The notes below the pieces were generated by a model. It was not told the origin of the DNA. It was given only the letters and a program-made list of their open reading frames with translations, and did no database searches. Made by a program: the position numbers and the translations under genes. Shown in pieces: positions 5,390-64,000 of a DNA stretch of 64,000 nucleotides. The first letter of the stretch is position 1; the number at the start of each line of letters is the position of its first letter. The DNA comes from Eledone cirrhosa (Eukaryota). The DNA is taken from the NCBI GenBank assembly GCA_964016885.1, contig OZ024742.1, positions 230,950,001-231,014,000 on the forward strand, in the 5' to 3' direction.

Positions 5390-5429
5390 GCACCTACGTA
5401 CGTTTCGCTCAGTTGGGCTTCTCAAGGGC
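5390..5429 (-). ncRNA. Minimal type I hammerhead ribozyme, U3-A8 core variant
   Basis: Minus strand: gcc-c UUGAGAA gcccaacugagc GAAAC guac GUA ggugc, then AAUAAA. Stem III is the palindrome ACGUACGU. The host is a ~320-bp unique element between (TA)n tracts. Confidence 0.65.
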
Positions 5430-7040
5430 ATAAATAATCAAAAGTGCTCCTTACATTGCTCGGAAAGAGTTTTGGGGGTTAAATCCACGTCAAGGTTCAT
5501 TGCTCGCAAAAATAGCTTGTTTTGATTTTGCAGCAGGTCAAGGGAGGTAACTCTGGCCGGTGTTAGGGAAGTCTTTCCCGGACAAATTATTTTATCCGCT
5601 ACGAGATGAGGTTACAGCCTTACCATTGTAGATACGCATGTAATCAACGCTTATTTTGAGAGTTTTTTGTTTATATATATATATATATATATATATATAT
5701 ATATATATATATATATATATATATATATATATATTTATATATATATACCTACATATTTATATGTATATACACAACTATATATGTATATATATATATATAT
5801 ATATATACACACAGCTATATATGTATATATACTTATATATGTGTGTATGTATAAATATACATACATAATTTATATATATATATATAATATATATAATATA
5901 TAATACATATATATATATATATATATATATAAATGAAAATATAGAAATTTTTGTGAGCAAGAAGCGAACAGTATATATATATATATATATATATATATAT
6001 ATATATATATATATATATATATATATAAGTGTATGCCTTATTCACCATATTTCTACTTATATCTATATACAAGCATTTCAGCCGGCCATTTTATATCCTA
6101 TATATATATATGCTATATATATACAGGTTGATACGAATTGATTCATAGATAGATGTAGAGATAACGAAATCTCGTTGCTCCTATATTTCCTTGATATATT
6201 ATTTTTTACATCACATCCTTTTCCTTCTTGCTTTGTAGTTCATTTTGCTTGTTTTTTTCTATCTCAATTCATTATTCTTATTCTTATTATTCTTATTCTT
6301 ATTCTTCTTCTTCTTATTATTATTATTATTATTATTATTATTATTATTATTATTATTATTATTATTATTATTATTATTATTATTATTATTATTATTATTA
6401 TTATTATTCCCTGTGATCCAAATAATATAATTCTCATCTCATCCTAACCTTATTAGAAGGATCTCAGTAACACCAACCAATAAAAGAAAATCTTTTTCAT
6501 AACAGGATGAAAATGTCGAGATAAGCTGATTTCCTCATGATTCAATCATATTTCCCTATAACATTTTTCCTTTTTGTTTTGACTTTCTTTCTTCAAATAT
6601 ACACACTAAGAATAATATTAATATATCCATATCCATAGATATTCTCAGAAGAGATATTAGTTGGAAATCATCTTTCTGCAACAGTAAATATTAGGTGCTA
6701 CTTACACTTTCAAAAGAAACCAAACCATATATATACAAACATAAACATATATATATATATATATATATATATATATATATATATATATATATATACATCT
6801 GCGTGTGAGGTGTTAGTTTGTCAATATATGTGTGTGTGTATATATATATTAAAGAGAGAGAGGCGGGATATATAGATATATATATATATATATATATATA
6901 TATATATATATATATATATATATATATATATATATATATATTGTTCTATTTCACTTTTGTATATACTTTTCTGCATAGTTTTCTCAAGAATGATTATTAT
7001 TATTATCATTATTATTATATAAATAATAAAAAATCTTTAG

Positions 7041-7153
7041 ACGCACAAAACCCACATCGTACCGTCCTGTGCCGTCTGTAATGTTTTTCTTAATGCCAGC
7101 CCTTGTGGCCAATAAAGAAATCATTATTATTATTATTATTATTATTATTATTA
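7041..7153 (+). mobile_element. 3'-terminal fragment of the Tx1/L1-like LINE found at 51767-52784, with an (ATT)n tail
   Basis: ACGCACAAAACCCACATCGTACCGTCCTGT...CAATAAAGAAATC(ATT)n is the near-identical reverse complement of 51767-51848. Confidence 0.85.
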
Positions 7154-7440
7154 CAGTTGCATTTATCTTGCTTTATGTTCATACGAGTTATCACCAAGTC
7201 ACAACCAGTGACCTCAAGAGACAACAAGGTCCGCCATGTTCAAGAAAGAACATACATACACACACATGCATCTTTAGTGTTTAGACTTGTGATGTACTTA
7301 TATTGACAGAATCTTCCTTAGTATATGGGCAGTTCCCATTAGTATTATTATTATTATTATTATTATTATTATTATTATTATTATTATTATTATTATTATT
7401 ATTATTATTATTATTATCATTATTAGTAGTATTATTACTT

Positions 7441-7696
7441 GGCAGTAATGAGCGGTGGATTGGCAGTAATGAGCGGTGGATTGGCAGTATCGGTAGAGGG
7501 TCAGACGCCATGCTTTGCAAGCAAAGAGTTACGGCCCTTTATTGTCTGAGTTCAAATCCTGCCGAGGTTAACTTTGCCTTTCATCCTTACGGGGTCGATA
7601 AAATAAAGTACCAGTCACGCACTGGGGGTCGATTTAATCGATTTTCCCCTCCCCCCAAATTACTGGCCTTGTGCCTATATAAGAAACCATTATTAG
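7441..7696 (+). mobile_element. tRNA-derived SINE, family 1 (near full length)
   Basis: B-box-like GAGTTCAAATCC, core ACTTTGCCTTTCATCCTTACGGGGTCGATAAAATAAAGTACCAG, tail GGCCTTGTGCC..AGAAA.CATTATT. More than 10 copies occur in the window. Confidence 0.85.
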
Positions 7697-8519
7697 CGTG
7701 ACCTGTGTCAGATCGCATTATGATACGACACAAGTGTTATGGTTAATATTCAAATTTATTTCTCAATACAAACGGAACATAATTTATAAGAAGAATGAAG
7801 TAAAGTCTATTAAATAGTTTTTACTATAAGAGAGACTTTATATATTTTATCTCATCACAAAAGCAGTAATGAAATATAAGTCTTGTCTTAAAATAGTTAT
7901 TCATATTGAAAAGGAAAGCATCCGGAACAGACTTCCTATCGTATCGAGAGTAGCGAACATTCACAATGATGCACTGTACGTAATTATATATATATATATA
8001 TATATATATATATATATATATATATATATATATATATATATATATATATATATATATGTGTGTATATATATATATATATGTGTATATATATATATATATA
8101 TATGTATATATATATGTATATATATATATATATGTATATATATATATATATATATATATACATATATATATATATATATATATGTGTATATATATATGTG
8201 TGTATATATATGTATATATATATGTGTGTATATATATATATATATATATATATATATATATATATATATATATATATATATATATATATTGATGCGTGGC
8301 CTCGATGTGTTCTTCAGAAGAAATTTTTATCGCGTTGCTGTCAGGGATGGCGTTTGGCAGATAGAGTCAGCATTGGAAATCTCGGCTCCATTCCACCGAC
8401 ACATGCACACACACACACACACACACAACACACACACACACAACACGCACACGCACACACACACACACACACATATATATATATATATATATATATATAT
8501 ATATATATGTTTCGCGTCG

Positions 8520-61699: not shown

Positions 61700-61920
61700 A
61701 GGGCGATAGATTGGCAAATTCGTTATAACGTCGGACCAAATGCTTTACCGTATTCGCCCCCAGCACTCCACATTCTGAATTCGGGTCCTGCAGAAGTCAA
61801 CTTTCCTTTTCATCCTCCCGGGGTCGGTGAACTGAAATACTACTCAAGTACTGAGGTCGATATAATCGATTTTGCCCTGTGCCCAAATTGCTGGCCTTGT
61901 GCTTTTATTAGAAACCATCA
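61700..61920 (+). mobile_element. Diverged SINE family 1 copy
   Basis: CTTTCCTTTTCATCCTCCCGGGGTCGG...TTGCTGGCCTTGTGC..TTAGAAACCAT. Confidence 0.75.
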
Positions 61921-63149
61921 TTTCGTGAAGTGGCAAAACATTCATCGCAACACTACAACCTTGACACGGACAGAATTATAAATACAAGCTGGTAACTCGT
62001 TTTCTTTTTTTATTTGTTGTAATGGAATTGTGTTCGTGAATAGTTTGCAGAAGTGCGACAAAAAATTTAACATCTCGCGAAATAAATGAAAAGCCAAAAT
62101 AACTGTCTTTGTATTATAGTCAGTAACTCACTATGTGTTACATTCCATGGCAAATTTTCAACAATTGCAGTGAAATTACGTTAGTAACTAGGTTGAAGCG
62201 GTGCGACGAAAATTTTGACACCATAAGATACAAATGAAAAACGAAGATAAAAGTTTTAGTGTTATATTGAGTAACTAATTTTGTGTTGTACTCAGTTACT
62301 AACTTAGGTTATTATAGTCATTAATTCCTTCTCCACAATTATTGTCAAATCGTATTACTGGACAGATTTTCAAAGGTGGGACGAACATTTTGACACCACG
62401 CAAAATATACGATTGTGTTTTTAGATTGTTAAAATGGCTCTTGTATGATATAATCGCACCAATTCTGTAGTGTCACCTATAATATAATTTCCATAATCTT
62501 ACAGGTGATTTACTCTCTAACTAGTCTGCTCTCTTAACTGAACTAACTTTTACACTATGATACACTAATATAATTAGTTTCTGGTATTATACGTTGACAA
62601 TACCAATTTTGTTGGTAAGTTTATACGGAGTAAGCTGGTAATTATAGCGTTGATAGCATCAGATGAAACATCTAAGTAGGATTAATGGTTAACAATTTAA
62701 CATCTAACATCAAATTGGTACTGAAAATAATGATGAATTCTTGACATTCGCACCAAACTTCCAATTTGTAGATTAAATCTACCCTACTTTATTGCATTGG
62801 AGGTACACTTCATTCGAATGTATTAGTACATAATTTTGTTTTTCATTTACGAGATGAAAGAAGCTGAAGGCGTGTAGCTATATGGCTAGAATGTTGTCAG
62901 TGCGATCACAATACCATAGGTTCGATTTCTAAACCGGGTGACGCGTTATCCTTGAGCAAAGCACCTCATTTCAGATTTTTTCAGTTCACTCAGCCTGAAA
63001 ATTAATAGTTATTCCTGCGACGAACTGGCACCTCGTCGGTGTAGTTGCAGTCTTATACTCTCAGTCATTTAATTTCTCAATCCACCGAAAATGGTCCTGC
63101 TTAAAAGTAAGTGTTGTGTCCTCTGTTAAATAAACCAAATTTTTAACGA

Positions 63150-63526
63150 AATATTATACGCTACTTACGATGTTTAAGTAGCGTTTATATTGAAAATGAA
63201 AATGGCATGTAATGCCCAATGTTAATTCGTAAATTTCCTAGAAATCATTAACGTAATCGGAAATTCTTTTCGTCCGCAGCAATGCGAGGGTACTAACTAA
63301 TGTGTGCTGCAAATTTCGAGGAAATCGGCTGGATTATCTTTAAGTTACTCCTCAAAAAAGCTTTAAAATGCCTAAAAAATGCGGATTTTCGGCTAATGCT
63401 AGTCCTAGAGCAGAAAAAGTTCAAATTATGTTAGCCCATTACACTTCAAGAAATATAAGTAACGCATGCGTAAAGTTTGGAAAAGATCGGTCGGGGTACT
63501 TCTCGAGTTTTATATATATATAGATA
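63150..63526 (-). mobile_element. Possible non-autonomous Helitron 5' portion
   Basis: The minus strand begins ATCTATATATATATAAAACTCG; internal AAATTTCGAGGAAATCGG / AAAGTTTGGAAAAGATCGG motifs. Confidence 0.35.
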
Positions 63527-63599
63527 AAACAATATAAAATAAATTAACAATAAAGACTAATTATATATATATATCCGGTGGTATATTTGTTGTGCAGCA

Positions 63600-64000
63600 T
63601 TTTAGATATGTTATAGTGTAGTGTGTTGAAACAGATATTGTTATATTTGGGGAGGGTCATGTTGTCCAAATATTGCAAAGATAGTAAAACACGCTCACTG
63701 TTTGGTTTGGTCTGGTTTTCGCTTCAATATATTTTTATATCTAAGTAATTTAGCTGGCAATTAATTGTTTCTACTTTAGGCACAAGGCCAGCAATTACCC
63801 AGTGCATTACTGGTACTTTATTTTATCGACCCCGTAAGGATGAAAGGTAAATTTAGCTGGCAATTAATGTTTATCAAAAACGTTATAGAAGCACAGCGGG
63901 AGGAGAGACAGGGATGACCACTGAAAATGTCACAGAAATGTGTGACGAAAGAACTTTGATAAATTATATTTATATTTTTAACTGTTGGTCAACATTGATT
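63600..64000. mobile_element. Older relative of the 41137 element, with a nested SINE fragment (63766-63849) and a decayed HHR (63917-63960, plus)
   Basis: GTGTGTTGAAAC.GATATTGTTAT..TTGGG.AGGGTCATGTTG. HHR reads CUGAAAA ugucaca..ugugac GAAAG aa CUU uga. SINE TSD AATTTAGCTGGCAATTAAT at 63747-63765 and 63850-63868. Confidence 0.8.

Follow-up and report, generated by a model that had tools for sequence, protein, structure and literature searches.

The hammerhead ribozymes (HHRs) published for Penelope-like elements (PLEs) have a type I core, a short palindromic stem III, a bulged base after A9 and, as a variant, a U3-A8 core; most are single motifs of truncated PLEs, with opposite-strand pairs lying 100-700 bp apart. 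All of these traits recur in the stretch of Eledone cirrhosa DNA analysed here (64,000 nucleotides, hereafter ‘the window’), in which several families differ from the published HHRs by having a long or branched stem II. Published counts stand at ~9,000 for X. tropicalis and 4,000 for coelacanth, against a sampled estimate here, made with a different descriptor, of ~92 type I HHRs per Mb, or ~2.7 x 10^5 genome-wide in 3 Gb. PLEs of the Hydra and Neptune clades, including Hydra-1_Obim (Craig et al. 2021, PMC8557442), share with those of the window a C-terminal GIY-YIG, the Hydra motifs, insertion into (TA)n, an HHR near the 3' end, inversions and tails; the families reported here are new, their clades are assigned by motif, and one young family combines intact ORFs with a U4C core.

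Other described systems bear on a second kind of element, which we call family M. Naiad PLEs have been reported without canonical HHRs, and with ‘HHR_half_core’ families (Craig et al. 2021, PMC8557442). Type-SGC and type-CSG hammerheads come from metatranscriptomes and from no genome of a known organism (Eckert et al. 2023, PMC10085705), and it is only from such environmental RNA that we find non-circularly permuted hammerheads to have been described before. Family M resembles type-SGC in its S-G-C block order, its covariation, an extra helix between the stem I and stem II sides, and a short linker that leads from stem I into the strand preceding GAAA; unlike type-SGC, it is genomic, sits in an animal retroelement and draws stem II mostly from a 5' strand. 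With the non-LTR retrozymes (Cervera and de la Pena 2020, PMC7229834; Li et al. bioRxiv 10.64898/2026.07.22.740005) it shares a tandem arrangement of non-coding units that each hold one HHR core, a low GC content and a proposed PLE origin, but its units measure 445-706 nt rather than 150-450, and its ribozyme is S-G-C, not type I.

We hold with good confidence that the 21 motifs listed by a first-pass annotation of the window represent type I hammerheads, placed at the 3' ends of no fewer than 12 repeat families of which nine trace back to PLEs, and that the window also holds family M, a non-coding tandem element with a non-circularly permuted core that is likely to cleave itself and likely to be mobilised by PLE proteins. 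All 21 sites, mostly on the minus strand, proved to be HHR motifs or decayed copies at the positions given, and they sort into 12 repeat families, where more than ten had been proposed; the list had overlooked a decayed inverted pair at 26405-26718 as well as the four permuted motifs of family M, which is the most unusual of the window's ribozyme-like elements. The features with type I HHRs are as follows.

5335..5671, minus strand: family K, Hydra-type PLE 3' end; U3-A8 type I HHR near 5390-5430; GIY-YIG ORF upstream in L351 and L352
15012..15250, minus strand: 3' end of a family A PLE with an inverted tail piece; type I HHR 15053-15112 intact
15402..15763, plus strand: family C, young Hydra-type PLE 3' end; HHR 15602-15713; pLTR-ORF-pLTR in L344
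15880..16036, plus strand: family D, short HHR element; HHR 15895-15986; no ORF link found
25144..25309, minus strand: family A 3' end; intact HHR 25178-25243
26405..26718, both strands: further repeat family, inverted pair; decayed type I HHR, best copy 26620-26680 (plus)
28921..29144, minus strand: family E, Neptune-type PLE 3' end; minimal HHR 29006-29041 with 4-nt palindromic stem III
35693..36090, plus strand: relative of family J, pLTR of the 808-aa Hydra-type PLE; decayed HHR at 35968
37431..38033, both strands: family A head-to-head inverted pair; HHRs 37559-37623 (minus) and 37929-37993 (plus)
38888..39242, plus strand: family L, old repeat (~80% identity); decayed HHR at 39095
39450..39636, plus strand: family F, very young Hydra-type PLE 3' end (40 best copies 100% identical); HHR 39544-39589; pLTR-ORF-pLTR in L342 and L343
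41139..41853, minus strand: PLE 3' ends of family G, showing inversions and tails; two HHRs, 41347-41389 and 41643-41687
42953..43210, plus strand: family H, Neptune-type PLE 3' end; HHR 43061-43099
43354..43506, minus strand: copy of family E whose HHR, at 43448, has a G in the cut position
45853..46777, minus strand: family I with inversion; HHR 46031-46154 with long branched stem II; no ORF link found
47059..47203, minus strand: family A 3' end; intact HHR 47093-47158
47371..50642, minus strand: broken 5'-truncated Hydra-type PLE; RT/thumb/GIY-YIG 48292-50095; 3' UTR with A9U HHR 47548-47660 and tail 47381-47498; inverted 3' UTR copy 50018-50642 with HHR 50475-50587 (plus)
51121..51687, minus strand: family B, Hydra-type PLE 3' end; HHR 51267-51321
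63917..63975, plus strand: family G fragment; decayed core

An intact core (CUGANGA, GAAA and UH in C-G-S order, with stems I and II) is present at 14 of the 21 sites, namely 15053, 15602, 15895, 25181, 29007, 37562, 37931, 39544, 41347, 41643, 43061, 46031, 47096 and 51267. The type I descriptor that matches these 14 gave a mean of 0.015-0.055 matches per shuffle over 200 block-wise dinucleotide shuffles and none in the reversed window, so that ~0.05 intact HHRs would be expected by chance. The other seven comprise three family-wide core variants (U3-A8 at 5390, common to the whole of family K, and A9U at 47548 and 50475) and four decayed copies from HHR-bearing families (35968, 39095, 43448 and 63917). 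Stem III, which had been described as mostly palindromic, is at least two-thirds so in all 14 intact window HHRs and perfectly so in seven; in a random genome sample it is perfect in 37 of 60 HHRs, compared with none in five shuffles, neither search having required a palindrome. These palindromes are the sole support for the predicted dimer cleavage of type I HHRs, in which such a stem III would limit cutting to dimers or tandem transcripts. Of 252 Rfam matches in the window, the best 150 included no hammerhead and were microsatellite-driven miRNA hits; Rfam also gave none at gathering score in the three loci searched, and none for the family M loci.

Nine of the 12 families (18 sites) run upstream, on the same strand, into ORFs with RT and GIY-YIG, and show the inversions, tails and (TA)n ends of PLE 3' ends, much as had been supposed; families B, E, G, H and J are joined to such ORFs in addition to A (L023, L043), C, F and K, the link for A being based on position and inverted flanks without traced continuity. 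The architecture is that of an EN+ PLE, with pLTR-ORF-pLTR units, inverted 5'-truncated copies and an optional tail, and a same-family head-to-head partner lies within 4 kb of 12 of 54 HHRs in a random sample. The description of the host segments as unrelated short non-coding elements was thus mostly wrong, the pieces being truncated copies of coding PLEs; only D, I and L (three sites) are unlinked, the search that found no PLE ORF link having covered D and I. The linked families belong to Hydra-type and Neptune-type PLEs by motif-based calls. An 808-aa ORF (L110) has RWK, DKT, the CxCX5C linker, CxxC and CxH, with a (TA)n target, as in the Hydra clade. Among eight ORFs from the loci, Pfam found GIY-YIG in one and RVT_1 weakly in one, missed the other six and did not detect the PLE ORFs of the window, and the window endonuclease as query gave no homologue at E<=0.001 among 123 candidates. 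Repeat searches of the window were dominated by microsatellites.

The suggested preference for TA repeats is borne out, with (TA)5 within 200 nt 3' of the cut in 91% of 68 HHRs and at 36% of background positions. HHR-bearing pieces do occupy part of the ‘unique’ DNA between microsatellites, but about one-fifth of it (11,239 of 50,901 non-microsatellite bases) rather than much. For the most part we see here a known arrangement, truncated PLE 3' ends in (TA)n, at very high density. Following the known PLE cycle, the PLE endonuclease would nick (TA)n, and reverse transcription would set out from a point 50-250 nt 3' of the HHR and in most cases end early, such that nearly all insertions would retain the HHR and few the ORF. 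The template would be RNA uncleaved at that HHR: 119 of 127 unselected type I copies extend 5' through the cut site, which rules out HHR-cleaved RNA as the usual template and agrees with Frangieh et al. (PMC11167929), where insertion of the sole PLE assayed in vitro did not require HHR cleavage. One young Hydra family keeps its 808-aa ORFs intact and carries U4C in the core, and its relative has A9U there, suggesting that fast cleavage may be dispensable.

Two other accounts find little favour with us. Chance matches in AT- or microsatellite-rich DNA, or an assembly artefact, have a negligible probability: a relaxed U3-A8 pattern does yield chance matches in AT-rich satellite (L049), but the shuffled and reversed controls already refute this account, and family M is covered by contigs from two public runs of one sample, most deeply over the motif. 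It is improbable, though less remote, that the type I sites come from short retrozymes or SINE-like elements that are non-autonomous, and not from truncated copies of autonomous PLEs; such elements would fit family D, whose copies mostly start within ~50 nt of the core, the 35 of 42 family G arms that start 65-67 nt 5' of the core, and a 482-nt tandem type I array elsewhere (L053/L347/L348), but not the PLE ORFs joined to nine of 12 families, nor the continuous spread of 5' ends in A, B, E, H, F and I. Family G is itself among the joined families, and as some of its copies run into a GIY-YIG ORF, a purely non-autonomous palindrome is ruled out for it. BLAST maps of 5' ends in type I families were confounded by subfamily divergence.

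Family M has 22,583 genomic pattern matches, compared with 28 in the control, and four copies in the window:

9332..9407, plus strand: family M motif, core decayed; element piece 9135-9457 with a 40-nt tail into (TA)n
29254..29329, minus strand: family M motif with an intact core and some mismatches in the stems; lies in piece 29201-29585
39690..39765, minus strand: family M motif in the 3' member of a 647-nt tandem; 4 nt inserted 5' of the cut block; tailless, ending in (TA)n
40337..40412, minus strand: family M motif, complete; predicted cut between 40392 and 40391

Its blocks follow the order cut block, GAAA block, CUGANGA block (S-G-C), a non-circular permutation in which all core bases are present, within 76 nt and at fixed spacings. 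Among 50 distinct copies the cut block, which was absent from the search pattern, has U16.1 in 48 and a non-G cut base in 49. Four helices covary, with 95.2% of cells paired (0 of 500 shuffles reach that, and slid controls give 31-45%) and both sides changed in 16 of 22 pairs, counted over copies of related subfamilies rather than independent events; among them are stems I and III, together with an extra helix that connects the side of stem I to that of stem II. The strand 3' of A9 pairs with the GAAA strand at one position (41 of 48 copies), the next three being non-standard, and with that one pair the textbook stem II is absent; stem II is supplied mostly by the upstream (5') strand. We therefore file family M as SGC-like and not as a type-SGC member. 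Stems III and I would close as pseudoknots, which single-strand folding did not recover, and one upstream strand would both lengthen stem I and provide most of stem II. A type II or III hammerhead was ruled out by the lack of a stem I hairpin, and a mere half core was likewise rejected.

As an element, family M consists of non-coding tandem units with one hammerhead core each and no long ORF, and one cut per unit would release monomers. The sequence evidence suggests that it probably self-cleaves and is mobilised by PLE proteins, with a Naiad-type PLE as putative ancestor or helper. The same layout, with different helix sequences, was seen by eye at the ends of the published Naiad_Obim and Naiad_Ovul (octopus) and Naiad_Esco (squid), where the fold occurs once, at the 3' end of 3.6-4 kb consensus sequences; two nematode Naiads have C-S-G hammerhead motifs with all three canonical stems, and inspection by eye revealed no family M-type motif in Naiad_Omin, Naiad_Adux or Naiad-1_Skow. 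Naiads further resemble family M in their (TA)n targets and 40-nt tail; no PLE ORF was found within 1.5 kb 5' of family M at any of 51 loci searched with non-Naiad PLE proteins. Judging from sequence, we lean towards the view that cephalopod Naiads carry active S-G-C hammerheads with a new, split stem II, and nematode Naiads C-S-G forms, and that here the S-G-C form gave rise to a retrozyme family that numbers over 22,000 copies, is cut into unit lengths and is mobilised by PLE proteins.

An alternative that we consider unlikely, yet worth taking seriously, is that family M is a structured but non-catalytic relic, whose fold binds RT or protects the 3' end and whose core bases are kept for structure. 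A stem II not made by the strand 3' of A9 is what such a relic might show, and both the dispensability of HHR cleavage for insertion in the one PLE tested in vitro (PMC11167929) and the fixed variant cores of young type I families are in keeping with it; U16.1 and the non-G cut base, however, are conserved where catalysis needs them despite lying outside the search pattern, published S-G-C and C-S-G forms do cleave (PMC10085705), and the nematode Naiad motifs retain every canonical stem. Rather less plausible again is an ordinary circularly permuted hammerhead built across adjacent tandem units, or from two RNAs, with the scrambling only apparent. Family M often does occur in tandem, and covariation is blind to pairing within as opposed to between units, these being near-identical; against this stand the confinement of all blocks to 76 nt at fixed spacings and the single copy of the fold in the Naiad consensus sequences, and a canonical stem II would still be missing.

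If our reading of Naiads and family M is right, non-circular permutation of an RNA would here be seen for the first time in animal genomes. Naiads had been regarded as proving that PLEs prosper with no canonical HHR; should family M cleave, the ribozyme would be close to universal in PLEs, the hammerhead core would tolerate a stem II built from a detached strand, and standard descriptors and Rfam would be overlooking whole classes of genomic ribozymes. With ~2.7 x 10^5 type I HHRs in dozens of families, some of them young and with variant cores, the role of the PLE hammerhead also becomes testable by comparison between families.

The bases at the family M cut are TA-like, and microhomology could produce a skew of 5' ends there. 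Family M 5' ends do lean weakly to the predicted cut (10 vs 6, p=0.016, for hand-picked copies counted against complete copies), a faint genomic hint of self-cleavage there, an earlier automated count (5 vs 23, p=0.98) having been confounded by TA matches.

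Of the 21 sites for which the first-pass annotation had proposed hammerhead ribozymes (HHRs), 14 match a type I descriptor with core and stems undamaged; 200 dinucleotide shuffles yield on average 0.015-0.055 such matches per window, and the reversed window yields none. The remainder belong to variant-core families, with 5390 in the U3-A8 family and 47548 and 50475 in the A9U family, or are decayed copies (four sites). The observation itself is real. The window, G000:C3:230950001-231014000, has 34% GC and is ~20% microsatellite; the assembly it comes from spans 3.0 Gb and 1,796 contigs. 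Further decayed or partial pieces, absent from the original list, sit at 21376-21608, 16073-16197, 12683-12766 and 27685-27886, the last having lost its core and stem II through an internal deletion. An AT-rich satellite (L049, 20% GC) is the source of many false U3-A8 matches.

Genome-wide, 59 random 10-kb stretches taken from 26 large contigs at round-number coordinates (589.6 kb in total, the share per contig not being strictly proportional to its length) hold 54 intact HHRs versus 0-1 per shuffle, a density of 92 per Mb (bootstrap 54-136; 81 when one tandem array counts once), or an estimated 2.7e5 per genome (1.6-4.1e5). They fall into 21 families, and the full set of loci used for clustering into 39 clusters. 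Only a rough comparison can be made with published counts, as descriptors differ: PMC4209133 gives ~9,000 minimal HHRs for X. tropicalis and 4,000 for coelacanth, and PMC7229834 gives more than 6,000 for Acropora, ~5,000 for mussel and as many as 120,000 retrozymes for axolotl. One array on another contig (G000:C11:14995300-15003700; L053, L347, L348) holds no fewer than 16 copies of a ~482-nt unit, lying in two orientations and every one bearing a type I HHR. Its dispersed relatives are 70-95% identical, and the array resembles a classical non-LTR retrozyme.

The palindromic or near-palindromic stem III noted at first holds up with its pairing left out of the search requirements: 14/14 window matches and 53/60 random-sample matches are at least two-thirds palindromic, and 37 of the 60 are perfect, versus none in five shuffles. 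Folding energies of eight single type I motifs (z = -0.3 to -2.8) are mostly unremarkable, as expected of motifs so short.

Twelve repeat families (A-L) cover the 21 sites, and nine of them, accounting for 18 sites, have Penelope-like element (PLE) ORFs upstream:

48292-50095, minus strand: broken PLE with RT, thumb and GIY-YIG, HHR in the 3' UTR, inverted UTR copy at the 5' end
Family A: ORF ~1.46 kb upstream, at two random loci
Family B: upstream ORF in 7/24 copies, one of the seven probably an inverted piece
Family E: upstream ORF in 5/24 copies
Family H: upstream ORF in 6/21 copies
Families C and F: pLTR-ORF-pLTR (pLTR, PLE long terminal repeat)
Family G: upstream ORF, seen in by-catch copies
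Families J and K: upstream ORF found

The proposal of PLE 3' ends from more than ten families is supported, with nine of the 12 traced to PLE ORFs; no ORF was found upstream of family D (18 copies) or family I (19 copies). A first look at the genome gives 23,526 candidates for the RT of the window PLE, and some lie within open frames of 808 aa, whose protein carries RWK, DKT, CxCX5C, CxxC and CxH; in Craig et al. (PMC8557442) these motifs define the (TA)n-targeting Hydra clade, and the supplement includes an octopus Hydra element with an HHR, Hydra-1_Obim. By motif, the linkers of families E and H are Neptune-like. PLE proteins and 3' ends of this genome resemble the published octopus elements, which suggests an octopod host. 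The type I population is a dense new instance of an already known arrangement.

Copies show graded 5' truncation with tails on one arm, and 12 of the 54 random-sample HHRs lie in head-to-head inversions. The suggested preference for (TA)n is borne out, with (TA)5 no more than 200 nt downstream of 91% of 68 HHRs versus 36% of background. The first-pass annotation took much of the DNA between the microsatellites for such elements; HHR-family pieces make up 22% of the window's non-microsatellite bases.

A young Hydra-type family (L110-L118) retains intact 808-aa ORFs, and its upstream pLTR combines a U4C core with a stem III that is imperfectly palindromic; U4C is reported to reduce activity in vitro while still permitting viroid infectivity (PMC3088659). 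An RT fragment at 34368-34647 (plus strand) belongs to a GC-rich Neptune-type family (3,066 first-look candidates), in which the descriptor detected no HHR 3' of the ORFs at 12 loci.

Among copies not selected via their own family's query, 119/127 continue 5' past both the cut site and stem III, and the insertion templates were therefore RNA uncut at that HHR, as was likewise reported in vitro for an anole element (PMC11167929). Since it sits 50-250 nt from the 3' end, the HHR is retained in nearly every truncated copy; PLE ORF homology makes up just 1.3% of the random sample. From the palindromes and the literature, we infer that type I HHRs cleave only as dimers. In a family G subfamily (L153-L176; window 41615-41853), near-complete head-to-head palindromes have arms with a common first base, which directly follows a CA-rich stretch and precedes the core by 65-67 nt; usually a 60-nt tail is present on one arm only. 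These palindromes may derive from short run-off cDNAs, with a promoter located in the pLTR, where promoter-like motifs are presumably present.

A further family, M, differs in the order of its blocks. In four window segments GAAA lies 27 nt upstream of CUGANGA, not downstream, and this exact two-block pattern has 22,583 genome matches versus 28 for a reversed control. From 35 short regions, hand-picked for diversity among the first 100 listed matches on contig C1, and five clustered regions, we assembled 68 copies including by-catch; the 5' part is present in 51, of which 50 are distinct. A cut block, absent from the search pattern, sits 16 nt ahead of GAAA (U16.1 in 48/50 distinct copies, a non-G cut base in 49/50), and the order is thus cut block, GAAA, CUGANGA (S-G-C) as opposed to C-G-S in type I. 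The aligned copies (48/50, leaving out L411, a likely chance match, and a window copy with an insertion) share a 5-bp stem III, a 6-bp stem I, a 6-bp helix that lengthens stem I, and a 4-bp helix in which the 5'-most strand pairs with the one preceding GAAA; the strand that follows A9 offers a single covarying pair (41/48). Across the alignment 95.2% of cells are paired and both sides change in 16/22 pairs, each value being reached by 0/500 shuffles, with slid structures at 31-45%. The number of further pair types is no better than in shuffles (223/500), and the three pairs of highest mutual information all fall within stem I. A hammerhead-like structure is well supported, and on this comparative evidence family M is a candidate ribozyme.

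Family M occurs singly, inverted, or in tandems of 445-706 nt units (65-70% pyrimidine; longest Met-frames 48-160 aa), and it has tails of the PLE type and ends in (TA)n; at the 51 loci searched there is no PLE ORF match in the 1.5 kb upstream. Its 5' ends, unlike those of the type I families, lean weakly toward the predicted cut (10 within -3 to +16, versus 6 in the 40 nt before; p=0.016), and the family is covered by contigs from a single sample sequenced in two public runs.

Eckert et al. (PMC10085705) report S-G-C hammerheads from metatranscriptomes, with none in genomes of known organisms, and only two natural C-S-G sequences; family M shares the S-G-C block order, but its stem II is built otherwise. 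Craig et al. (PMC8557442) describe Naiads as lacking canonical HHRs and flag eight with a 'half core'. By eye, in 3' ends from their supplement, Naiad_Obim and Naiad_Ovul have the four helices of family M in other sequences; they keep its 27-nt spacing, resemble it in upstream context, and draw all of stem II from the 5' strand, including a G-C pair adjoining GAAA. Naiad_Esco, also by eye, has the family M layout. Naiad-3_Nbra and Naiad_Hpol appear to hold complete hammerheads whose blocks run in the non-circular order C-S-G; the stems measure 5-6, 5 and 9-11 bp, a long linking helix is present, and the two species differ from each other; no such motif was seen in the supplement's Naiad_Omin, Naiad_Adux or Naiad-1_Skow. 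The literature searched, mostly outside subscription journals, yielded no description of permuted hammerheads in animal genomes or Naiads: the consulted part of an O. vulgaris repeat annotation (PMC13282606) lists active Penelope-like families with ribozymes unmentioned, a text search of PMC12988792 gave no match on this subject, and a 2026 retrozyme preprint, as excerpted, limits its search to type I HHRs. What gives the analysis its value is family M together with its Naiad counterparts, as ribozyme candidates predicted from sequence.

Other repeats share the window. A SINE-like repeat of ~220 nt (7464-7701, 21629-21783, 32964-33400, 44766-44996, 46781-46949, 53071-53436, 56913-57139, 63727-63858), in which ARAGORN finds no tRNA gene, is very abundant (70-86 matches in the 590-kb random sample). 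An abundant ~200-nt repeat with an internal inversion and (TA)n flanks (25623-25825, 27311-27525, 30865-31054, 35269-35469) may be a MITE or a further 3' end of PLE type; no HHR core was seen in its window copies. At 17400-19180, low-complexity (TGG)n/(TTG)n repeats span some 1.8 kb and contain long open frames, probably non-coding. On the minus strand, 52057-52674 encodes a fragment from the C-terminus of a non-LTR retrotransposon ORF, with a Pfam zf-RVT match.
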